Both the position numbers and the translations under genes were made by a program. 64,000 nt of DNA from positions 499,580 through 563,579 of the forward strand of contig CP011216.1 of assembly GCA_001029795.1 (NCBI GenBank). The letters run 5' to 3'. Positions within the stretch are counted from its first letter, which is position 1, and each line of letters begins with the position of its first letter. This document shows, piece after piece, positions 2,973 through 52,727 of this stretch. Below the pieces are notes generated by a model. It saw nothing but the letters and a program-made list of their open reading frames with translations. It made no database searches and was not told the origin of the DNA. Source of the stretch: a candidate division Kazan bacterium GW2011_GWA1_50_15 (lineage in GTDB: Bacteria > Patescibacteriota > Kazan-3B-28).

Positions 2973-5063
2973 ATGTCAGACCCAATCGCATCGCTGAACC
3001 CTGAACAGATCAAGGCCGTCCATCGCGTCAAAGGTCCGGTTTTGGTATTGGCAGGAGCCGGCAGCGGCAAAACCAAAGCGCTAACCCATCGGGTGGCGTA
3101 TTTGATCCAAACCAAACAGATATCACCCGCCAATATCCTAGCCATTACCTTCACCAACAAGGCGGCCGGGGAGATGCGCGAACGCATCCAGCGACTCATT
3201 AGGTCGCGTAGCGACAAACCTTTTAATGTCAGTACATTCCACTCCTTTTGCGCCAAGGTGCTGCGCCGTGAGGCACACCATCTGGGCTACGCGGCTAACT
3301 TCACGATCTTAGACGCTGACGATCAGCTCACCGCCGTCAAACAAGCAATGGAGATGCTGCAATTGGATATCAAAAGGACTGCGCCAGAGGCGGTCAGAGC
3401 GCATATCTCCTCGGCTAAGAACGAACTGATGGATGAGGATGCATATACCTCGGTAGCGAGCGGAACGTTCCAGCAAATCGTAGCTAAAGTCTACCGGGCT
3501 TACCAGGATATCTTGCGCCGGAACCAGGCGATGGACTTTGACGACTTACTGATGAACCTGGTCATCATCTTCCAGGGACAGCCGAAAGTCTTAGCCCGTT
3601 ATCAGGAACAGTTCAAATATATCTTGGTTGATGAATACCAAGACACCAATACCGCACAGTACCGGCTGACCTCGCTACTGGCCGCTAAGCATCGCAACCT
3701 GTTTGTAGTCGGAGATGATTGGCAGAGTATCTATTCTTGGCGGGGAGCGAACTTCCGCAACATCTTAAACTTTCACAATGACTACCCAGACGCCTATATT
3801 GTGAAACTGGAGCAGAACTATCGTTCGACCCAGAACATTCTCGATGCCGCCCACGCAGTGATCGCCCACAATAAAAACCGAAGTGATAAAAAATTGTGGA
3901 CCAACCAGGCCAGCGGTGAACTAATCACGGTCTACGAAGCGTCCAATGGAAAGGATGAGGGTGATTTTATCGTGCGGGAGATACTGGCCTGGCGGGGGAG
4001 AACTAGGGCTCAGCTAAACAATTTTGTCGTGCTGTATCGGACTAACGCCCAGTCCCGCGCCCTAGAGGAAACTATGCTCCGAGCTGGTCTGCCTTATCGC
4101 GTGATCGGCGGAGTCCGCTTCTATGAGCGACGGGAGATCAAGGATATGTTGGCTTTCTTAAAGTTGCTGGCCAATCCCGATGATAACCTAGCCCTTCAGC
4201 GGATCATCAATCTGCCTGCCCGAGGCATCGGCAAAAAGACATTGCAGGCATTGGAACAGGAGGCTTATTCCGCGGATAAGGGGATGTACGACTATATAAC
4301 GCATTTGAACAATCCGACTCCAGCCGTGCAGGAGTTTGTGGGGGTGATGCGACAGATCGAGCGCAAGAGCCCACGGCTTAATCTCAGTCGTTTGCTCGAC
4401 TTGGTGCTAACCGCGTCTGGTTACCAAACCATGCTCAAGGCTGAGGGGATCGAGGGTGAGACCCGGCTCGAAAACATTGCCGAACTTAAATCAGTGATGG
4501 AAAAGTACGACCACCTAGCCCCCGCAGAAGCGTTGTCTATCTTCTTGGAAGAGGTCGCGCTGATCTCTGATACTGACAATCTCACGCTGGCTGATGATGC
4601 GATAACGCTCATGACCCTCCACACCGCCAAGGGATTGGAGTTTGATTATGTCTTTATGGTGGGCGCCGAGGAAAACTTATTCCCACATAGCCGCAGTTTA
4701 ATGGACGCTGAGGAGCTGGAGGAGGAACGTCGACTATGTTATGTCGGGATCACCCGCGCCCGCCAAAAAGTTTATTTTACCCACGCTGAAGAGCGGCTGA
4801 TCTATGGTAACCTGCAGGCTAACCCCCGCTCACGATTCATCGACGACCTTCCCGAAGAACTTACCGAATTCGTTAGACGTTCGGGCCCAGTCCGCCAAAC
4901 GAGTGGACAAGAACGCCGGCTCCAACCCGGGGATAAGGTTATCCACCGGCAGTTCGGGCCAGGCGTGATCATTAGTCAAACCGGAGATATCGTGACTGTC
5001 GCTTTTGTAAAGTACGGCATAAAGGATCTGGCCGCCGACCTGGCCGATATCAAACCCAAATGA
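2973..5063 (+). CDS. pcrA: ATP-dependent DNA helicase PcrA/UvrD family
   Basis: Walker A AGAGSGKT, UvrD helicase motifs (TFTNKAA, VDEYQDTN, YRSTQNIL) and a UvrD C-terminal domain. Confidence 0.93.
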   Translation: MSDPIASLNPEQIKAVHRVKGPVLVLAGAGSGKTKALTHRVAYLIQTKQISPANILAITFTNKAAGEMRERIQRLIRSRSDKPFNVSTFHSFCAKVLRREAHHLGYAANFTILDADDQLTAVKQAMEMLQLDIKRTAPEAVRAHISSAKNELMDEDAYTSVASGTFQQIVAKVYRAYQDILRRNQAMDFDDLLMNLVIIFQGQPKVLARYQEQFKYILVDEYQDTNTAQYRLTSLLAAKHRNLFVVGDDWQSIYSWRGANFRNILNFHNDYPDAYIVKLEQNYRSTQNILDAAHAVIAHNKNRSDKKLWTNQASGELITVYEASNGKDEGDFIVREILAWRGRTRAQLNNFVVLYRTNAQSRALEETMLRAGLPYRVIGGVRFYERREIKDMLAFLKLLANPDDNLALQRIINLPARGIGKKTLQALEQEAYSADKGMYDYITHLNNPTPAVQEFVGVMRQIERKSPRLNLSRLLDLVLTASGYQTMLKAEGIEGETRLENIAELKSVMEKYDHLAPAEALSIFLEEVALISDTDNLTLADDAITLMTLHTAKGLEFDYVFMVGAEENLFPHSRSLMDAEELEEERRLCYVGITRARQKVYFTHAEERLIYGNLQANPRSRFIDDLPEELTEFVRRSGPVRQTSGQERRLQPGDKVIHRQFGPGVIISQTGDIVTVAFVKYGIKDLAADLADIKPK

Positions 5064-10717: not shown

Positions 10718-10930
10718 GAGGGAGAGCAACGAACCTGGCCTGCTCTGTTCTTATGGTGGAGAGAGGAGCAGGGCCACTAGCCCTTCCTGTCTTTCAGGGG
10801 TGGAGGTGGGAGTAGGGCAGGTTGGCTGAACGCAGTGAAGCTTGGGTTCCCCCAACTGTCCGTTGAGGGAGGAACACACCCCCATTCCTCACTCAAGATT
10901 CGACACACCTCGTGTTCCCCTCATGGTTAG
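10718..10930. repeat. Copy A of a diverged repeated intergenic element (homologous to 45640-45805), between yajQ and recA
   Basis: Shared segments ggtggagag(a/g)ggagcag(g/a)gccactagcccttc and gagg(g)a(g)aacacacc...cccctcat abutting the upstream gene's stop. The terminator hairpin that is intact in copy B is degenerate here. Confidence 0.55.
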
Positions 10931-11425: not shown

Positions 11426-11461
11426 TAGACAATATCAAATAAAAAATATAAAATCAGCAAA

Positions 11462-11821
11462 TTATTTGACCGCTTGCCGCTGTGAATTGATTTTAATCTG
11501 TGCCAAAATTCGTGCGATTTCGTCACCCTCGCTCACGATCGCTTGCCACCGATCCAATGCAATATAGTTGGAATCTTTTAAAAGCGTTAGCCAGTAAATT
11601 GTCTCCCGGGCCTCCTTCAGGGAAATTGTAATTTTATTAATAAAATCTTTTCGGCTAATCCCGGCATCCGCTTCCTGTAGGTTAGCAGAGACGGAAGTCC
11701 CTGACCTAATCATTTGAGAAACTAGCGAACGATTTATTGTGTCAACCCGAATTGATTTGGCAAGCTCTACAACCGACAATGTAAATTTGTAGCTCCTCAA
11801 ATGAATTGGATGCCGAGACAT
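11462..11821 (-). CDS. Four-helix-bundle protein (23S rRNA intervening-sequence protein / Avd-like family)
   Basis: Family-typical sequence (HPIHLRSYKF...IYWLTLLKD). Local GC is about 40% against about 56% background. AT-rich flanks. Confidence 0.75.
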   Translation of the reverse strand: MSRHPIHLRSYKFTLSVVELAKSIRVDTINRSLVSQMIRSGTSVSANLQEADAGISRKDFINKITISLKEARETIYWLTLLKDSNYIALDRWQAIVSEGDEIARILAQIKINSQRQAVK

Positions 11822-11868: not shown

Positions 11869-14094
11869 TCAATAATCTTCGCCTTCTTTGAATTCTTCTT
11901 TGGTGCCCTCATCAACATCCACACCGCCGCCGGCGATGGCACCAACTAGATCCTCTTTTTTCATTAACACATCGCGGGGCTTGGCACCTTCACCTGGTCC
12001 GATCACCCCGCGCTCTTCTAAAATATCCAGCAGTCGCGCGGCGCGGGCGTAGCCGATCCGGAATCGCCGTTGTAGGTAAGAGGCTGAAGCCTTGCCGGTT
12101 TTAACCACTAGTTCCATTGCTTCCTCGGCCAGATCATCGTCGCCCCCTTCTTCACCGCCGAACATCCCACCACCCCGCTTGGCATCCTTGATCACTTCTT
12201 CTACATACTGTGGCGCGTCGAGTTCTTTGAGAGCATTGGTAACCGACTTAACTTCCTTGTCGCCCACAAAGGAAGCCTGGATACGTTTGGGTTTGGCGGC
12301 GTCAGATGGCATAAACAACATATCTCCGTTACCAAGCAGTTTATCGGCTCCAACTGTATCTAAAATCGTCCGCGAATCCGTGCCGGAGGTAACGGCAAAC
12401 GCGATTCGGGAGGGGAAGTTAGCTTTGATCAAACCGGTGATAACATCTACGCTCGGCCGTTGGGTGGCCAGCACCAAATGGATACCGACCGCCCGAGACA
12501 TCTGCGCCAAACGGCAGATGTAGGCCTCCACCTCACGGGCCGACACCGCCATCAAGTCGGCCAACTCGTCGATAATCAGCGCGATATAAGGCATCGGGCT
12601 GTCTTTTTCCTGGCGATTGTACTGACTGATCTCGCGCACCTTGGCTTCGGCCATAACTTTGTACCGCCGCTCCATCTCCATCACTAACCACTTTAAGGCG
12701 TTGATGGTTTTATGCGGATCAACGATGACGGGCGAAAGCAAATGGGGGATATCGTTGTAAGCGGTGAACTCGACCCGCTTGGGGTCAACTAGAATGAGAC
12801 GCAGGTCAGCCGGGGAGTTCTGGTATAAAAGGGATACCAAAAGATCGTTTAGAAAAACGCTCTTACCCGCGCCCGTCGCCCCAGCGATTAAGAGGTGCGG
12901 CATCCGAAGTAGGTCGGTCGCTACCGGCACACCAGCTACGTCCCGGCCTAGCGGGATGCGCAGAGGCGATTTAACTACATGGAACTCCTCCGACTCCATC
13001 ACCTCGCGCAAACGAACCAGCGCGGTCTTTTTATTGGGCACCTCGATCCCGACTAGCGACCGGCCGGGGATGGGCGCCTCGATCCGGATGGGATGGGCGG
13101 CTAGAGCTAAGGCCAGGTCATTACTTAAGGCCGAGATGCGTGAAAGCTTTACCCCGGCGGCCGGCTTTAAAGTGTACTGGGTAACGGTCGGACCGACGTT
13201 CACCTCATTCATCTCGACAGCGATACCGAAATCGTCCAACGTCTCCTGGATGATACCCACATTCCCCGAGATGTTCCCGCTATCAACTTTGGTCACCACA
13301 TCACTCAACAGTTCCAGCGAAGGTGGGGTCCAGTCGCCAGTTGGTTTGAACTGCGGAACGAAGTCGGTGTCTTTTTTGACCGGAGCCCGGCGAACCAACG
13401 GACCGCGAGGCTTAGCCCCAGCCTCTTCAGCCTCGTCGCCCTCCTCTTCGCCCGCTTCCTGTCCATTAGCAAAATCGTTGTTGATGCGGATGTCCGGCAG
13501 AGTTGGCAAGGCCGGGAGAGATAGTTTGGTCCGCAAATACAATTCGCGCAGGGGCTGGCCGAAGGCGAACAAGAGCGAGACCGCAAAGGCGACTGAGAGA
13601 ATCAGGAAGGCCGCCCAGAAGTCGACTATATTAATCAGAAATCGGCTGACAAAAAATCCCAGGTATCCGCCGCCGTCGCCCAGCTGAGCCAGTTCCAGAC
13701 TGATATCCGAGCCGGTAAACACATGCATTAATCCGGACAGTGAAACAACAAATAGGGCCAGGCCGATGGCGTTGGCTAATTTAAATTTGTAGCGCACGGG
13801 GAAAAACATCGCCACGCCTGCACCGGCCAAGAGCAGGGGAATAAAGAAACTGACCCAGCCGAAACCCAGCCGCAAGGTGGTATAGAATATGCGGCCCATA
13901 TCTCCAGCCCCACCCAGAATCGCTAGCAGAGTGAACAGCCCGACTCCCACTAGGAGGATGGCGGCCATTTCGCGGACTACGGCCGGATCGAGCTCTAGAT
14001 CAAAATTCAACCCCTCCGCCCATTTGGAGGTCTGGTAAGAGCGGTAGCGATACCGCCGGCCATTGCTAGTTTTCCTTCTTCTGCGCCGTGCCAT
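11869..14094 (-). CDS. ftsK: DNA translocase FtsK/SpoIIIE
   Basis: N-terminal TM helices, Walker A GATGAGKS, FtsK gamma winged-helix C-terminus. ATG 14094 (MARRRRRK) is preferred over TTG 14112. Confidence 0.93.
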   Translation of the reverse strand: MARRRRRKTSNGRRYRYRSYQTSKWAEGLNFDLELDPAVVREMAAILLVGVGLFTLLAILGGAGDMGRIFYTTLRLGFGWVSFFIPLLLAGAGVAMFFPVRYKFKLANAIGLALFVVSLSGLMHVFTGSDISLELAQLGDGGGYLGFFVSRFLINIVDFWAAFLILSVAFAVSLLFAFGQPLRELYLRTKLSLPALPTLPDIRINNDFANGQEAGEEEGDEAEEAGAKPRGPLVRRAPVKKDTDFVPQFKPTGDWTPPSLELLSDVVTKVDSGNISGNVGIIQETLDDFGIAVEMNEVNVGPTVTQYTLKPAAGVKLSRISALSNDLALALAAHPIRIEAPIPGRSLVGIEVPNKKTALVRLREVMESEEFHVVKSPLRIPLGRDVAGVPVATDLLRMPHLLIAGATGAGKSVFLNDLLVSLLYQNSPADLRLILVDPKRVEFTAYNDIPHLLSPVIVDPHKTINALKWLVMEMERRYKVMAEAKVREISQYNRQEKDSPMPYIALIIDELADLMAVSAREVEAYICRLAQMSRAVGIHLVLATQRPSVDVITGLIKANFPSRIAFAVTSGTDSRTILDTVGADKLLGNGDMLFMPSDAAKPKRIQASFVGDKEVKSVTNALKELDAPQYVEEVIKDAKRGGGMFGGEEGGDDDLAEEAMELVVKTGKASASYLQRRFRIGYARAARLLDILEERGVIGPGEGAKPRDVLMKKEDLVGAIAGGGVDVDEGTKEEFKEGEDY

Positions 14095-41643: not shown

Positions 41644-42617
41644 ATCTGGCAAACCGGACAGTAACGAGCAGAGCGGCCGCCGAGTTTGATGCGCTTGACC
41701 GTACCCTTACAGCCGAATTTACACGGCTCGCCCTCGCGCTCGTAGACGGCGAGGTGGTTTTGCATCTTTCCGGTCGCGCCCTCGGGCGTGCGGTGGTGGG
41801 AGATGCTGGTACCGGAGTATTTGATACCGAGCTTCAGCACTTTTAGGATGGCGGAGCGGAGCTTGCTGGCATCGGTCTTACTGATATCTTTGCCTTTGCG
41901 GGTTGGTTTGATGTGGGCGTAGAACAGGGCTTCGTCGGAATAAATGTTGCCGACGCCCGAAACCATTTTTTGGTCTAAGATGATGGATTTGATGTTGCTC
42001 TTGGGCCGGCGCTGGCAGATGTCCCAGAGATATTTGGCGGTGAAGGACTTATCGAACGGCTCTGGGCCAAGACCGGCAAAGAATTTGTCTGCAAAAATAT
42101 CTTTGGTGGGGGTGAGCTTGACCCAGCCGAACTTACGCTGGTCGTTAAAATAGAGCGTGCCATGAGTCAGTTCAAAAATCACGCGGGTGTGCGAACTGGG
42201 CATGCTCTCAAGAAAATTGGCGTCAGGATGACCGAGGTTGAGGCGTCCCTTCTCCGGTTTGTCATCCTGAACTCGTTTCAGGATCTTGCTTCTGGATGCC
42301 GAAACAAGTTCGGCATGGCGAGAGTGGGGGATGTAAATCAGCTGCCCCGTCATTTTCAGGTGAATCAAAATCGAATATCCTTTATCAAGGTCAATGATAA
42401 TACCCTTGCCACGACGAGAGGTTGTTTTGATGGTTCGCCCTAGGATTTCTTTGGGCACAGGGAAGACGGTTTTGCCGCCTACTTTCTTGGGCCTGGTGAT
42501 TTTTGGATTCCACAAAAAACTTCTAGCCGACAGAATTTCGACACTCTTAATTTTCTGCCCGACGATGTATCGGGAGAGTTCTCTTACTACCGTCTCTACT
42601 TCGGGTAACTCTGGCAT
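41640..42617 (-). CDS. mutM: Formamidopyrimidine-DNA glycosylase (Fpg/MutM), with an internal insertion of about 35 aa
   Basis: N-terminal MPELPEVE, H2TH and C-terminal zinc finger CPVCQ. Converges on and overlaps recF by 4 nt. Confidence 0.9.
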   Translation of the reverse strand: MPELPEVETVVRELSRYIVGQKIKSVEILSARSFLWNPKITRPKKVGGKTVFPVPKEILGRTIKTTSRRGKGIIIDLDKGYSILIHLKMTGQLIYIPHSRHAELVSASRSKILKRVQDDKPEKGRLNLGHPDANFLESMPSSHTRVIFELTHGTLYFNDQRKFGWVKLTPTKDIFADKFFAGLGPEPFDKSFTAKYLWDICQRRPKSNIKSIILDQKMVSGVGNIYSDEALFYAHIKPTRKGKDISKTDASKLRSAILKVLKLGIKYSGTSISHHRTPEGATGKMQNHLAVYEREGEPCKFGCKGTVKRIKLGGRSARYCPVCQI

Positions 42618-43172: not shown

Positions 43173-45346
43173 ACTTTTTTAGTGCCGCCCCAGTTGATAC
43201 CCGCCTCGACTTTGGCTTCGATGGGGGCGGCGAGTTTGGTGGCGGACTCCATTTGGGTCTTCACTAGTTTAGCGACTTTTTTGACATCCTTGGTCGGCAC
43301 TTCCAGCACTACTTCGTCGTGGACCTGCAGGAGCAGCTTGCTGTCTTTGCTGATTTTGGGGAGTTCTTTGGCGATATTCACCATCGCGATTTTCATAATA
43401 TCGGCGGCGGTGCCTTGGATGGGCATGTTGATAGCGGCGCGGATGGAAGCGTTGCGGACAGCTAAGATGCGGGACTTCACTTCGGGGAGGTGACGGCGGC
43501 GGCCGAACAAGGTCTCGACATAGCCGGTGGTGATGACGAAAGCGGTGACGCTATCCATATATTCTTTGATCTTGGGGTAGAGCTCGAAATACTTGGCGAT
43601 ATACCGGCGGGCTTGGAAGACGGACATATCCGTGCGGGCGGCCAGGCCGAAAGCGGAGACACCGTAGATGATGCCGAAGTTGATGACTTTGGCGTTGCGG
43701 CGCATGGCCGGGGTAACATCTTTGGGTTTGACGCCATTCACCTCGGCGGCGGTCATGGTGTGGATGTCTTTGCCCTTCTTGAAGATGCCCAGCATCGTTT
43801 TGTCATGGGCCAACGATGCAACCACCCGCAGCTCGATTTGGGAGTAGTCGGCGGAAATTAACCGAAAGCCCTTGGGGGCGATGAAGGCCTTGCGGATTTC
43901 CGCACCTAAGTCACTTCGAATGGGGATGTTTTGGAGGTTGGGGTCTTTGGAAGACAGTCGGCCGGTGGAGGTATCTTGGGCGTAGGTGGTGTGGACACGG
44001 TCCTGCTTATCTACTAGTTTAGGCAAAGTTTCGAGGTAGGTGTTGCGCAGTTTCTCCAACTGACGGTACTCCAAAATGTGTTTGATGACGGGATGCTCGC
44101 TGTAGATCTTTTCCAGTTCCGAGACGGCGGTGGAGTATCCCGATTTCCCCTTGGTTAGGCCTTGGGCGGGGAGTTTTAATGTCTTAAACAAGAACTCGGC
44201 CAGTTGTTGGGGCGAGGAGATGTTGAACTCCTTTTTGCTGTATTTAAAGATGTTGGAGCGAAGGCGCTTGAGGCGGGCGGAGATCTGCTCATTGAGGGCG
44301 TGAAGACGCTTCAAGTCCACCATAATGCCGGCGCGCTCCATCTTGCGCAAGACCGGCTCGACCTTGGCATCGAGCTTTTGGATGAAGTCCTTTTGCCCAG
44401 CGCCCTTTACTTCGCGGGGCTGGGCCGACTTAAAAAATGATGCTTGGTGTCCGCCCACTGGCGGAGTGGTCAGCGTGCCTTTGGGGACTTTGTCTATCAA
44501 CGAACGGAAGTCGAGCTCGTAGAACAAGTCGCGAACTTTGTTGGCGTCAAACTCCACGGCTTCGGCTTTTTTGAGATCCAGCTTGATGGGGACATCGGCG
44601 CGGATGGTGGCGAGACCTTTGCTCTGCAGGGCCTGCTGTTTATGCTCGCGCAGGAGGTCGCCGGTGCGGCCGGTGATTTTGTCGATGTGTTTATAAATGC
44701 CCTCCATCGAGCCGTATTCGATGAGCAGTTTGCGGGCGCTGACTTCGCCGATGCCGGGCACGCCGGGGATGTTGTCCGAGGGGTCGCCGCGCAGACCCTT
44801 GAAGTCCACCCATTGGGAGGGTTTCAGACCCTTGGTCTTTAAGACCTCGGCGGGGTCATAGACGACAATGTCGGCAAAACCCTTGCGGGGGGCATAGACA
44901 AAAGTGTCGTTGTCCACTAATTGCAGGGCGTCCATATCGCCGGTGGCGATGTAGGTTTCGATGCTAGAGGGGGTCTGTTTGGAGAGGGTGCCAATGATGT
45001 CGTCCGCCTCAAAGCCGTCTTTCAAGAACATCGGGATGTTGAAGGTCTCGACCAATTTTTGGATGGCAGGGATTTGGTCGTAGAGTTCCTGTGGGGCCTT
45101 GATGCGGGTGGCCTTATATTCTTTATATTCCTCGTGGCGGAAGGTCGGGGCCTGGGTATCGAAAGCCACAGCAATGTAATCCGGCTTCAGCTTGGTGAAG
45201 ATATTTAGAAGCATCGAAGCGAAGCCGTAGATGGCCCCGCTGGGTTTGCCCTGGGGGGTGGTCAAGTTGGCCTGGGCGAAGGCGTGAAAGGCCCGGTGGA
45301 CGAGGGCATTGCCATCGATGAGAACGAGTTTTTTCTTGGCTGTCAT
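43169..45346 (-). CDS. polA: DNA polymerase I (5' nuclease + polymerase domains; short form)
   Basis: 5'-3' exonuclease N-terminus (KLVLIDGNALVHRAFHA) and Pol A motifs. Start at MTAKKK (ATG 45346) rather than the track's 45412. Confidence 0.93.
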   Translation of the reverse strand: MTAKKKLVLIDGNALVHRAFHAFAQANLTTPQGKPSGAIYGFASMLLNIFTKLKPDYIAVAFDTQAPTFRHEEYKEYKATRIKAPQELYDQIPAIQKLVETFNIPMFLKDGFEADDIIGTLSKQTPSSIETYIATGDMDALQLVDNDTFVYAPRKGFADIVVYDPAEVLKTKGLKPSQWVDFKGLRGDPSDNIPGVPGIGEVSARKLLIEYGSMEGIYKHIDKITGRTGDLLREHKQQALQSKGLATIRADVPIKLDLKKAEAVEFDANKVRDLFYELDFRSLIDKVPKGTLTTPPVGGHQASFFKSAQPREVKGAGQKDFIQKLDAKVEPVLRKMERAGIMVDLKRLHALNEQISARLKRLRSNIFKYSKKEFNISSPQQLAEFLFKTLKLPAQGLTKGKSGYSTAVSELEKIYSEHPVIKHILEYRQLEKLRNTYLETLPKLVDKQDRVHTTYAQDTSTGRLSSKDPNLQNIPIRSDLGAEIRKAFIAPKGFRLISADYSQIELRVVASLAHDKTMLGIFKKGKDIHTMTAAEVNGVKPKDVTPAMRRNAKVINFGIIYGVSAFGLAARTDMSVFQARRYIAKYFELYPKIKEYMDSVTAFVITTGYVETLFGRRRHLPEVKSRILAVRNASIRAAINMPIQGTAADIMKIAMVNIAKELPKISKDSKLLLQVHDEVVLEVPTKDVKKVAKLVKTQMESATKLAAPIEAKVEAGINWGGTKKV

Positions 45347-45359
45347 ATGTTTATTATAC
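45347..45359 (-). promoter_or_regulatory. TATAAT -10 element (plus 45353-45358) 6 nt upstream of the polA ATG, implying a leaderless mRNA; -35 is poor
   Basis: Minus strand reads ...gggggg TATAAT aaacat ATG. Confidence 0.4.
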
Positions 45360-45377: not shown

Positions 45378-45575
45378 CGGCGAGCGCTAAACGGCGCTCG
45401 ATCCGTTGCCACTTTGTCTTGCCAAAGTGGCGCAAAGCGTGGCCCTGGCGGCTCCGGCTCTATTCATTGGCTAAATCGCTGGGCGCTCCCGCCGAACTCG
45501 GTCGCCACGGCGACCTCAGACATGCGGCTCCGCCCCAAACGATTTAGCTCAATTCAGGACGAGCCTACGCCGATG
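45378..45575. repeat. Copy 1 of a roughly 200-nt structured intergenic element (paralog at 52510-52727)
   Basis: Conserved hairpins gagcgc-NAAACG-gcgctc and gccacttt-GTCTTGCC-aaagtggc. Strong primary similarity across the first about 90 nt and patchy similarity across the remainder. Confidence 0.6.
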
Positions 45576-45639
45576 GGCCAAGTTGGGAGAGATGCAGTTT
45601 GCTCGATGGGTCCCAATAAGACCAAAGCGGCTATCCGTC

Positions 45640-45805
45640 GAAGGGCCGGTAAAGAAAGGGAGAGGGAGGGCAAGAAAAAGGCCTCCGGAGGGGAGGCCTT
45701 TTGTTCTGTGGGGTGGAGAGGGGAGCAGAGCCACTAGCCCTTCAGGGTCGGCTTTTGCCGATGGCTCGATGAGGGGAGAACACACCCTCGTTCGCCCCTC
45801 ATAGC
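45640..45805. repeat. Copy B of the repeated element homologous to 10718-10930, immediately 3' of the SIMPL gene; contains an intact terminator hairpin
   Basis: Shared ggtggagagGggagcagAgccactagcccttc and gaggggagaacacaccctcgttcgcccctcat segments. Confidence 0.55.
45674..45705. terminator. Bidirectional rho-independent terminator (aggcctcc-ggagg-ggaggcct) inside repeat copy B
   Basis: 8-bp GC-rich stem flanked by GAAAAA and TTTTGTT. Confidence 0.7.
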
Positions 45806-48116: not shown

Positions 48117-48168
48117 CGTCATTCTGAACTTGTTTCAGAATCTGGATCCTGAAATGAATTCAGGATGA
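48117..48168. repeat. Two tandem perfect hairpins (attctgaa-cttgt-ttcagaat; atcctgaa-atga-attcaggat) enclosed by gtcat/atgac, between femX-like and murE
   Basis: Direct reading. No T-run follows on either strand. Confidence 0.65.
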
Positions 48169-48177
48169 CAAACGGGG

Positions 48178-50374: not shown

Positions 50375-52513
50375 ATGGACAAGACATTTGACTTCAAAAA
50401 TCTAGAACCGAAACTCTATGACTTGTGGGAAAAGTCGGGGGGTTTTACGCCCAAGATGGTGGTCGGCCAGAAGCCGTACACCATCATCATGCCACCGCCT
50501 AATGCCAATGCCAGCCTGCACATTGGGCACGCACTCTTTGTGACGGTTGAGGATATTATGGTGCGGTATCATCGGATGAAGGGAGAGCCAACGCTGTGGC
50601 TACCCGGGGCGGACCATGCCGGTATCGCTACGCAGGTGTCATTTGAAAAAGAACTGACCAAGAGGGGTTTGACCCGCTTTGATTTGGGGCGGGAGGAGTT
50701 CGTGAAACAGACCTGCGCCTTCACGATGAAAAATCGGGCGACGATGGAAGACCAGCTGCGTCGGCTGGGGGCGAGCTGTGACTGGACCCGCAAAAAGTTC
50801 ACTCTCGACCCGGATGTAAGCGAGGCGGTCTTCACCACTTTTAAGAAAATGTATGACGAGGGGCTGATCTACCGCGGGGAGCGGATCATTAACTGGTGCC
50901 CGCGGTGTGCTACCTCACTCTCCGACCTGGAGGTGGAACACAAAGAAACTGAGGGGACGCTGACCTACATCAAATACCCATTGGTGGGCGGTCGCCGACC
51001 CAGAGGGTCATCTGACCCGGAGGGCAAGTTTATCGTGGTTGCCACTACCCGCCCGGAGACAATGTTGGGCGACACGGCGGTGGCGGTGAACCCGGCCGAT
51101 AAACGTTATGTCAAGTTGGTGGGTAAGAAAGTCGCATTACCGCTGACTGACCGCGAAATACCTGTCATCGTGGACGAGGCGGTGGATATGAGATTTGGCA
51201 CTGGCGCGGTGAAGGTGACCCCGGCTCACGACCCGACCGACTTTGAAATTGGCCAGCGACACAAACTGCCGAGCATCGTGGTGATCGGGCAGGATTTGAA
51301 GATGACGGAGGCCGCTGGCAAGTACACTGGGTTGAAGGTGAAGGCGGCGCGGGAGCAGGTGCTAGCCGATCTGCAGACGGCGGGGCTCATTGAAAAGACG
51401 GCCGCGCACTCGCATAATGTGGGTCACTGCCAGCGGTGCGACACGGCGGTAGAGCCGATGCTCTCCAAACAGTGGTTCGTGAAGATGGCGCCCTTGGCGG
51501 GACCCGCCAAGGCGGCGGTGAAGAGTGGCCAGATCAAGTTCATCCCCGAGCACTTCGAGAAGCTTTACTTTAACTGGATGGAGAATATCCGCGACTGGAA
51601 CATCAGCCGGCAGCTGTGGTGGGGACATCAGGTACCGGTCTATTACGCCAAAGACTACCCTGACAAGATGGCGGTAGCCGCGACTAAGGGCGAGGCCGAA
51701 AAAGCGCTGGGCGGCGAAGTGGCGCAGGACCCGGATACTCTGGATACTTGGTTCTCGTCCGGGCTATGGCCATTCACGACGCTGGGCTGGCCAAAGGTTA
51801 CAGATGACTTTAAATATTTTTACCCCACAACCATGATGGAAACGGGCTGGGACATTATCTTTTTCTGGGTAGCTCGGATGATCATGCTGGGACTATATTG
51901 TACCGGCCAAGCGCCGTTCGAGTTGGTCTATATGAACGGGCTGGTGCGCGATAAGGAAGGCAACAAGATATCCAAATCCAAGGGCAATGTCATCGACCCG
52001 ATGGTAATGGTGGACAAGTACGGCGCCGATGCTCTGCGGATGGGGCTGGTAGCGGGCACAGCGGCCGGGAACGATACGGCGATGTCGGAGGATAAGGTGC
52101 GGGCCTACCGCAACTTTGCCAACAAGATATGGAATGCGGCCCGGTTCATTAATTTGGAGGTGAGCGCGCCCAAGGATATCGGCGCGGTGGAGCTAACGAG
52201 CGAGGACAAGGCCTGGCTGAAGGAGTTTGATGCGGTGAGTGCGGAGGTGACTAAGTTGATGGATAAGTACCAGCTGGGTCAGGCGGCCGAGAAGCTCTAC
52301 GACTACTTCTGGCACACCTTCTGTGACAAATGTATTGAAGTAGCCAAACCGCGGTTGCAGGACATGGCCCAAAAAGACATCGCCGCGGCGGTCTTAAACT
52401 ACATTCTGAAAAACTGCCTCATTATGCTTCATCCCTTTGTGCCGTTTGTGACGGAAGCCGTCTGGAAAAATCTCTACGAGGGTGATTTGATTTCGACCAA
52501 GCGGTCGTCGTAG
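50375..52513 (+). CDS. valS: Valine--tRNA ligase, C-terminally short (712 aa; ends about 22 aa after the HPFVPF motif)
   Basis: HIGH (PNANASLHIGHAL) and KMSKS (KISKSKGN) motifs plus the ValS editing domain. Stop codon abuts repeat copy 2. Confidence 0.9.
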   Translation: MDKTFDFKNLEPKLYDLWEKSGGFTPKMVVGQKPYTIIMPPPNANASLHIGHALFVTVEDIMVRYHRMKGEPTLWLPGADHAGIATQVSFEKELTKRGLTRFDLGREEFVKQTCAFTMKNRATMEDQLRRLGASCDWTRKKFTLDPDVSEAVFTTFKKMYDEGLIYRGERIINWCPRCATSLSDLEVEHKETEGTLTYIKYPLVGGRRPRGSSDPEGKFIVVATTRPETMLGDTAVAVNPADKRYVKLVGKKVALPLTDREIPVIVDEAVDMRFGTGAVKVTPAHDPTDFEIGQRHKLPSIVVIGQDLKMTEAAGKYTGLKVKAAREQVLADLQTAGLIEKTAAHSHNVGHCQRCDTAVEPMLSKQWFVKMAPLAGPAKAAVKSGQIKFIPEHFEKLYFNWMENIRDWNISRQLWWGHQVPVYYAKDYPDKMAVAATKGEAEKALGGEVAQDPDTLDTWFSSGLWPFTTLGWPKVTDDFKYFYPTTMMETGWDIIFFWVARMIMLGLYCTGQAPFELVYMNGLVRDKEGNKISKSKGNVIDPMVMVDKYGADALRMGLVAGTAAGNDTAMSEDKVRAYRNFANKIWNAARFINLEVSAPKDIGAVELTSEDKAWLKEFDAVSAEVTKLMDKYQLGQAAEKLYDYFWHTFCDKCIEVAKPRLQDMAQKDIAAAVLNYILKNCLIMLHPFVPFVTEAVWKNLYEGDLISTKRSS

Positions 52514-52727
52514 CCGAGCGCGAAACGGCGCTCGACCCGTTGCCACTTTTGTCTTGCCAAAAGTGGCCAAAAGCGTGGCCCGGTAGCTCCGGGCTTATTC
52601 GTTGGTAAAATTATCTTTCCGCTTACAGCCAAACTCCCCCTCGGCTACGCTCGGGGTCAAACAGTGGCTCCGCGGCGATAATTTTACTCAACTCAGAACA
52701 ACCCTCCGCTAATGGGCCGGTGAAGGC
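52510..52727. repeat. Copy 2 of the roughly 200-nt structured intergenic element (paralog of 45378-45575); fills the whole spacer between convergent valS and the downstream minus-strand gene
   Basis: Same hairpin series as copy 1, including a compensatory 1-bp extension of hairpin 2 (gccactttt/aaaagtggc). A third hairpin gcccgg-tagct-ccgggc followed by TTATTCGTT is terminator-like on the plus strand. Confidence 0.6.

Follow-up and report, generated by a model that had tools for sequence, protein, structure and literature searches.

An undescribed, low-copy, structured noncoding element occurs twice in the window (the whole 64,000-nt stretch of DNA that was analysed), and its fold is under purifying selection at two loci that are both old. 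We interpret it as an element of the candidate division Kazan (CPR/Patescibacteria) lineage that most likely acts as an RNA, a reading to which we give a probability of about 0.5. Judging by the covariance and folding models, it is probably a new structured RNA family. Slightly more tentative is the narrower proposal of a Kazan-specific regulatory RNA family with two paralogues, by polA and by valS near the replication origin, whose core and subapical loop would bind a candidate partner.

The two copies had been placed at 45378-45575 and 52510-52727 by an earlier note, made from the letters of the window. The pair holds up, with limits refined to 45381-45579 (copy 1) and 52515-52718 (copy 2), and the ordered series of shared motifs described there is complete in both copies by sequence reading and by alignment. 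The series consists of a first hairpin, HP1 (CGAGCGC-NAAACG-GCGCTCG), the linker CCGTT, a second hairpin, HP2 (GCCACTTT(T)G-TCTTGC-C(A)AAAGTGGC), the motif AAAGCGTGGCCC after HP2, and the tail ATGGGCC. Blastn aligned the first 98 nt of the two copies at 87% identity (E 4e-25); past this point the similarity was weak, with a weak 37-nt match at the 3' end. Over the 5' ~70 nt the copies are ~94% identical and differ by four substitutions and a paired one-base indel in HP2, so that the lengthening of this stem on both arms, from 9 bp in copy 1 to 10 bp in copy 2, is as first noticed. The rod formed by the third hairpin, HP3, is ~60% identical. Against the rest of the window, blastn matched each copy to nothing but its sister, and motif searches with mismatches found each motif at the two copies only, where shuffles predict about none. 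The window region was found in more than 20 assemblies, including those of groundwater Kazan bacteria GCA_001004375.1 (LCQY01000001.1, 601,557 bp) and GCA_003484385.1, and both copies are 100% identical in all assemblies fetched.

Table 1. Coordinates of the element copies, their substructures and adjoining features in the window.
Feature	Coordinates	Strand	Description
Copy 1 HP1	45381-45400	+	CGAGCGC-TAAACG-GCGCTCG, 7-bp stem, 6-nt loop
Copy 1 HP2	45408-45431	+	GCCACTTTG-TCTTGC-CAAAGTGGC, 9-bp stem
Copy 1 HP3	45441-45579	+	rod of ~139 nt, GGCCC/GGGCC closing, 8-9 short helices, small internal loops
Copy 1 conserved internal loop	45493-45499 opposite 45516-45523	+	CGAACTC opposite TCAGACAT
Copy 1 apical hairpin	45500-45515	+	
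Copy 1 3' extension	45583-45672	+	GGGAGAGA ... CTATCCGTCGAAGGGCCGG ...; collinear with L034 flank (local alignment); element membership uncertain
GC-rich hairpin	45675-45705	both	GGCCTCC-GGAG-GGGAGGCC; T runs on both strands, from sequence
Copy 2 HP1	52515-52534	+	CGAGCGC-GAAACG-GCGCTCG
Copy 2 HP2	52542-52567	+	GCCACTTTTG-TCTTGC-CAAAAGTGGC, 10-bp stem
Copy 2 HP3	52577-52718	+	rod-like hairpin of ~142 nt
Copy 2 conserved internal loop	~52632-52638 opposite 52658-52665	+	AAACTCC opposite TCAAACAG

Each copy folds into HP1 (7 bp, loop NAAACG), HP2 (loop TCTTGC) and an HP3 rod of ~138-142 nt. The third hairpin of the earlier description is thus present, but it is a rod of ~138 nt in which GGCCC (in gtggccc) pairs with GGGCC (in atgggcc), and this closing stem accounts for the 'caaagcgtggccc' and 'atgggcc' motifs that had been listed separately. 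Both strands of both copies out-fold dinucleotide shuffles by a wide margin (z -5.3 to -6.3), and independent minimum-free-energy folds of copy 1, copy 2 and a third copy found in a relative (L034, below) share the HP1-HP2-rod architecture, with z-scores of -5.3 to -8.0. The small internal loops and a one-base bulge lie at the same positions in both window copies. Near the apex, the rod contains a 7x8-nt internal loop (CGAACUC / UCAGACAU in copy 1 and AAACUCC / UCAAACAG in copy 2), the flanking helices of which are entirely different between the window copies; the AAACUC / UCARACA loop is constant in all three copies, and every helix flanking it differs. In both copies HP1 is preceded, at a distance of 7 nt, by a 5-bp hairpin ('HP0') that looked like a fourth covarying stem. 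It was excluded from the element, because at the valS site it is made of the codons GCC-NNN-TGG-CCG (Ala-x-Trp-Pro) and the version at the polA site is present in element-less relatives. A small peptide was rejected on account of reading frames that are unlike between the copies, and six-frame translations of both copies, compared with a protein database for spurious ORFs over other copies, found none.

Covariation was assessed on the two window copies with RNAalifold, which on either strand gave 52 pairs, 11 of them changed on both sides and none broken. The lower rod, which is well aligned, accounts for about eight of the 11 double changes, among them C-G to U-A, G-C to A-U, A-U to G-C and U-A to A-U. 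The paired insertion in HP2 had been taken as a sign of selection on structure rather than on sequence, and these paired changes extend that argument well beyond HP2. When the L034 copy was included, 94.3% of the cells paired and 19 of the 48 model pairs carried double changes, in an alignment of three sequences from two lineages that was fitted to the model. None of 500 shuffles reached any of the five three-copy measures, and sliding the partners by 1-3 columns lowered the pairing to 33-48%. Despite their heavy divergence, the window copies keep 47-48 of the 48 model pairs intact. The alignment-free fold of the L034 copy agrees with the covariance model, and the two double changes in HP1 are also seen in a sequence-only MAFFT alignment. 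The earlier note had held that a lack of both further copies and covariation would count against its claim; what was found is a third copy in a relative and the 19 double-changed pairs.

Paired changes in long DNA palindromes can come from template switching between the arms, without selection on an RNA, and template-switch mutation can produce such changes in hairpin-forming DNA. A long palindrome of no function, in which intrastrand template switching or gene conversion maintains the complementarity of the arms, could therefore display the paired changes, and its neutrality would agree with the dispensability of the element in several lineages. Homogenisation of the arms would, however, erase mismatches, whereas the internal loops, the bulge and the 7x8 loop persist in all three copies, and the best conserved parts of the element are the non-palindromic linkers and the hairpin loops of the 5' core. 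We regard this explanation as very improbable. The sequence conservation of the core and loops, the free covariation of the helices and the long maintenance of perfect pairing in both paralogues are in keeping with a functional structured nucleic acid, and these features fit a homogeneous mobile repeat or a neutral palindrome poorly.

We searched relatives with a covariance model (R1) built from the two window copies. The relatives comprised seven syntenic valS loci (denoted by L numbers) with 72-82% ValRS identity, amounting to ~140 kb. The R1 model gave one full-length match in these loci, at L034 12166-12377 on the + strand (25.2 bits, E 2.6e-5), and blastn found no copy in them; a two-copy covariance model can thus retrieve a distant orthologue that is missed by sequence search. 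The L034 copy, which is much more diverged than the window copies, is located at the 3' end of valS, in the orthologous position, in a genome with 72-75% ValRS identity. Folded by itself (12166 to ~12380, z -8.0), it adopts the same architecture: HP1 (TGAACGC-TAGCTG-GCGTTCA) with the two double changes relative to copy 1, HP2 (CCCAC-CTTTTTG ... CAAAAAG-ATGGG), and then the long rod with the internal loop CAAACUC / UCAAACAG. A second covariance model that included the L034 copy detected no additional copy in 226 kb. The ~140 kb of the relatives held no copy outside the orthologous valS site, and 10 kb of extra sequence on each side of the window added none, leaving two copies in 84 kb. In wider scans, the exact pattern AAACGGCGCTCGANCCGTTGCC had three chance matches among genome_contigs, in unrelated GC-rich genomes, and CCGTTGCCACTTTN{0,1}GTCTTGCC had one chance match among metagenome_contigs, in a coding region, the source organism not being among the returns of either scan; two viral_contigs scans gave chance matches only. 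The literature search yielded nothing relevant to the element.

The valS locus was compared among the relatives, which fall by ValRS identity into three groups: the window, L014 and L017/L033 (81-85% within the group), L016 and L034 (90%), and L032 and L035. Both the window and L034 have an intact element at one and the same site, 7-8 nt past the Trp-Pro codons of valS; in L034 the HP1 loop contains the valS stop codon. A C-terminus of the form ...x-x-W-P(-K) is shared by nearly all of 120 ValRS homologues. L014, L016 and L034 keep it, and in the window it has diverged without changing in length (STKRSS). Some of the homologues run on past WP (for example ...WPTSRSS, ...WPTSRPN and ...WPATRG), and a stop codon shifted into HP1 may be the sign of additional copies there. 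The ValRS of L017/L033 is without the WP end (AVARENVG), and there valS overlaps the convergent gene by 33 nt (L017 2262-2294, L033 2619-2651), so that ValRS ends in the antisense of the last codons of that gene. Four relatives with the 33-nt valS overlap had first been read as empty sites, with a 6-bp target duplication in the window, as if the element had recently been inserted. This reading was dropped for L017/L033 because these two have lost the near-universal WP(K) end of ValRS; their overlap is therefore a secondary deletion, which plausibly occurred between the similar hexamers TTGATY and TTAATT.

The L016 valS site retains the HP1 5' arm only and shares its downstream flank with L034; by this comparison, it is an internal deletion of ~198 nt. 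The polA site of L016 and L034 carries GGCGAGCGCCAAATCGCG, identical to copy 1 at 16 of 18 positions, and is divergent thereafter. Since both loci of the other lineage still carry pieces of the 5' end, both copies predate the lineage split, and on the evidence of the aligned sites the element has been lost or truncated several times since. Its loss or truncation in L014, L016 and L017/L033 shows that it is dispensable. The shared ancient loci argue against recent transposition and explain the strong divergence of the window copies.

The main rival to an RNA is a structured dispersed repeat of the ERIC, BOX or Rickettsia-palindromic kind, non-autonomous and either selfish or domesticated, which would have spread long ago to at least two sites and whose fold would be kept either because propagation requires it or because of effects on adjacent genes at the RNA level. 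Such a repeat is suggested by the two direct-orientation copies 7 kb apart, by the inter-locus duplication that carried the 3' flank too, by other short palindromic repeats in the same genome, and by the differing presence and absence among relatives at both loci, the spacers of which are variable hot spots. Like these repeat families, the Kazan element is a noncoding, imperfect palindrome in the 100-200 nt class that forms a stable rod and keeps its pairing despite substitutions, and it is found at gene ends or in convergent spacers of a genome that has other small palindromic repeats. Unlike them, it has two copies in 84 kb, which are ancient, diverged and not homogeneous, and an asymmetric, non-palindromic two-hairpin 5' core; sequence or Rfam similarity to these families is absent. 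Also against a dispersed repeat are the lack of terminal inverted repeats, of a clear target duplication and of any mobilising enzyme in the 84 kb, the finding of just two copies there and of none off the orthologous site in ~140 kb of relatives, the age and divergence of copies that are far from near-identical, and the interpretation of the 'empty sites' as secondary deletions, the ValRS of L017/L033 having lost ...WP. We consider a dispersed repeat unlikely, although it is the strongest of the competing explanations.

A miniature mobile element was among the three candidate functions put forward earlier, with a structured 3'-UTR or terminator module and a small RNA. The 5' end of the element (CGAGCGCTAAACGG) is unrelated to the reverse complement of its 3' end (GGCCCATCGGCGTAGG), and its inverted repeats are those of the internal hairpins only. 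A resemblance of TTGATT and CTATCC at the valS site, which had looked like a target duplication, is explained by codons native to the two genes, Leu-Ile in valS and Asn-stop in the convergent gene; the polA site shows nothing comparable. The copy number is two in 84 kb of a 0.6-Mb genome, at 87% identity over 98 nt and much less beyond, and no transposase, integrase, reverse transcriptase or Cas-like gene was found in the window and its 20 kb of flanks. A classical miniature transposon is weakened by the absence of terminal inverted repeats, by the ancient shared loci and by the diverged copies. A simple intrinsic terminator is excluded: the element has no U tract, with no T run after HP3 on the + strand or after HP1 on the - strand, and a terminator scanner called internal sub-hairpins only, within chance expectation. 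These findings narrow the three candidates rather than single one out.

We compared the element with known families. As the earlier note had suspected, it matches no known ncRNA class: Rfam 15 gave no match in the window at the gathering score and no relevant match at E<=10 around the copies. A ~200-nt rod with an internal loop of conserved sequence, and two paralogues, recall the 6S RNA of some bacteria, but the loop of the element is small and lies beside a short apical hairpin instead of mid-rod, and two extra hairpins precede the rod; 6S RNA was rejected on the subapical 7x8-nt loop and the lack of an RF00013 match at E<=10. Palindrome-associated IS200/IS605 elements and TnpB/IscB scaffolds are likewise without terminal inverted repeats or evident target duplication and have hairpins near their ends and a highly structured noncoding body. 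The Kazan element differs from them in the absence of a TnpA, TnpB or IscB gene, in left- and right-end hairpins that differ from each other, in the lack of an Rfam HEARO-type match and in loci that are stable over long evolutionary time; an IS200/IS605-derived element or a TnpB/IscB guide RNA was rejected because tnpA, tnpB and iscB are missing from the 84 kb and the end structures are unlike each other. Retron msr-msd and DGR repeats were rejected for want of a reverse transcriptase in the window or its flanks and because the differences between the copies are not adenine-specific. An integron attC site was rejected as well, the base of HP3 being GGCCC/GGGCC and a GTTGGGA downstream of copy 1 having no counterpart in copy 2, and so was parS, since no parS-like site overlaps the element. 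A further parallel is with 3'UTR-derived small RNAs and REP-type 3' stabilisers: the element directly follows the valS stop in two lineages, and its long hairpin is predicted to be stable enough to block 3'-to-5' decay. In contrast to these, copy 1 follows no + strand gene, a U tract is absent, and the element is much longer and more elaborate.

The two copies lie in different gene neighbourhoods, and no function can be tied to the genes beside them. Copy 1 is located between polA and a gene of the SIMPL family, which is on the - strand and has its stop at 45805. The first base of copy 2 is 2 nt past the valS stop codon (52511-52513), and the copy ends 9 nt short of the stop (52728) of a convergent gene (243 aa), the last of a type IV secretion-like cluster. 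Each copy had been said to fill a whole intergenic spacer; this is true of copy 2, which fills a 214-nt spacer, but copy 1 takes up only ~200 nt of a 458-nt spacer, the rest of which contains a 95-nt stretch, the terminator-like hairpin at 45675-45705 and another short repeat. This hairpin gave terminator-type partial Rfam matches on both strands and no call from a consensus terminator scanner; from its sequence, it appears terminator-like both for the SIMPL gene (-) and for any + strand transcript through copy 1. The copies are direct repeats 7,134 nt apart on either side of a block of housekeeping genes, as described, but the bracketing is incidental, because element-less relatives have the same block and gene order. 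No tRNA or tmRNA genes were found in the window.

The neighbourhood is one of housekeeping genes, with dnaA, dnaN and recF at 37.9-41.6 kb. The GC skew changes sign at ~34-38 kb, beside rnpA, yidC, dnaA, dnaN and recF, and this region is the probable replication origin. Most genes on either side of it are on the - strand, and those on the right side are therefore not co-oriented with replication. The two copies are 6-15 kb away from dnaA, on its side of rising cumulative GC skew, and the + strand is therefore the lagging-strand template, in the same orientation in both copies. Together with the nearly all-Watson-Crick helices, a fold that would be equally possible in DNA, this position is compatible with a single-stranded-DNA signal, for example a site for priming, primosome assembly or recombination that would fold in the lagging-strand template close to the origin. 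Plasmid single-strand origins are likewise long imperfect hairpins with conserved unpaired motifs. The shared orientation carries little weight, however, as it follows from the conserved gene order and concerns two copies, both of which are without a CS-6-like or attC-like core motif or a parS-like overlap, and a 200-nt unit of three hairpins is not known to be required by any chromosomal system of this kind. Such a signal is improbable and, like a neutral palindrome and the decayed leader considered next, less likely than a dispersed repeat.

The inter-locus duplication carried at least 300 nt and took in 3' flank: the sequence behind copy 1 is collinear with the flank of the L034 valS site. 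The copy 1 3' extension had no Rfam match. In L034, small + strand ORFs with a terminator form a cassette behind the copy, and the sequence after the copy matches the glycine riboswitch RF00504 at 23.2 bits, against a gathering score of 32. This sub-threshold, glycine-riboswitch-like aptamer (L034 12365-12448 and L016 ~12180-12250) has the signatures GGAGAG, CGCCGAAGG and UCAGG-CAA and lies upstream of small + strand ORFs, one of which encodes a CxxC...CxxC zinc-ribbon protein. Within it, 24 of the 27 positions of L034 12385-12411 agree with 45556-45582, the 3' arm of HP3 in copy 1. A block similar to this arm, CTATCCGTCGAAGGGCCGG, recurs 50 nt downstream of copy 1, and a vestige of it, CGGTGAAGGCC, follows copy 2. 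These recurring 3' blocks suggest that the ancestral unit was probably longer than 200 nt, with the HP3 3' arm sequence repeated. Element, aptamer and small ORFs might once have formed a single unit, a + strand cassette with its leader, of which the window copies would be decaying relics. The L034 unit, still present with its sub-threshold glycine aptamer, small + ORFs and terminator, and the collinearity of the copy 1 3' flank with it, including the match of L034 12385-12411 to the HP3 3' arm, would then be accounted for. Unlike neutral relics, though, the window copies have 47-48 of 48 pairs intact; L016 has the cassette without the element, so the two are separable; and RF00504 had no match on the element or elsewhere in the window. 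We think it improbable that the window copies are such relics.

For a functional RNA, we favour the + strand, because the element adjoins the valS stop in two lineages, the hairpin after copy 1 has a T run on the + strand, and a + strand cassette follows the L034 copy. Counts of G-U against A-C pairs were tried as a guide to the strand, and the core helices proved almost purely Watson-Crick. The - strand has lower absolute folding energies and z-scores that are not consistently better. On that strand the conserved loop reads YUGUYUGA-[helix]-GAGUU, and tandem G-A and G-U pairs, a motif common in RNA, could close it. A search for promoter-like sites found none on either strand.

The architecture combines a 5' core of conserved sequence, made of two hairpins and A-rich linkers, with a ~140-nt rod whose helices may change freely as long as they stay paired and which carries the conserved internal loop under the apical hairpin. 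Read from the + strand, the RNA would be made at the valS locus by read-through from valS, as the position of the element 2 nt past the stop in the window and of the stop inside the HP1 loop in the relative suggests, and at the polA locus it may be a separate unit ending at the 45675-45705 hairpin. The core and the internal loop would be putative binding sites for a protein or RNA partner, and the long rod may both stabilise the 3' end and keep convergent or divergent transcription units apart. To our knowledge, CPR bacteria, with their tiny genomes, are almost uncharted for noncoding RNA, and very few such RNAs are known in them beyond the universal ones. At two loci, beside polA and valS, the ~200-nt element occupies intergenic space that is scarce and remains intact after dozens of paired substitutions, which implies a function worth its cost. 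If it is an RNA, it would be a lineage-specific regulator or scaffold in organisms thought to be minimally regulated; if it is a repeat, structured selfish elements would persist even in streamlined genomes.

Several other features of these spacers were observed. The start of polA is at 45346 on the - strand, with TATAAT 6 nt before the ATG. The same box lies 6-8 nt upstream of the polA ATG in the window (45344-45358), L014 (4290-4307), L016 (4923-4938) and L034 (2496-2511), with a small GC hairpin of variable sequence immediately upstream of it; the arrangement suggests a leaderless or near-leaderless polA mRNA. At the position upstream of polA, L014 has another structured element of ~95 nt (4305-4400), with a GTCGT/ACGAC outer stem around three hairpins, which both covariance models missed. 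The accessory content of the polA-SIMPL and valS 3' spacers varies among L014, L016, L034 and L035, with examples such as a GIY-YIG gene, small ORFs, an epimerase gene and hypothetical genes of 100-420 aa; this difference from relative to relative marks both junctions as turnover hot spots in Kazan genomes.

Outside these junctions, a 23S_rRNA_IVP family gene (four-helix bundle) adjoins yajQ and ftsK at ~11460-11820; DGR accessory proteins belong to this family, and no reverse transcriptase was found near the gene. A second intergenic repeat, GGTGGAGAGRGGAGCAGRGCCACTAGCCCTTC, is present at 10755-10786 and 45712-45743 (94% identical over 32 nt), with a further shared block, GAGGGAGGAACACACCC, at ~10862-10890 and ~45765-45795. 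The GGTGGAGAGRGGAGCAGRGCCACTAGCCCTTC repeats lie just downstream of the - strand genes yajQ and SIMPL, one of them between the copy 1-side terminator and the SIMPL stop. Double hairpins of the form (T)GTCATYCTGAA-N5-TTCAGRATC were observed in the window at 42254-42310, in the Mur ligase-FemAB spacer, and at 48118-48172, inside the fpg ORF. Repeats of the GTCATYCTGAA type also flank a small GIY-YIG gene in L014 (12190-12560) and occur upstream of polA in L035 (~4150-4250). The match to the Fpg N-terminal domain spans 165 residues against a 117-position profile, and the ORF as read suggests that fpg carries an in-frame repeat insertion.
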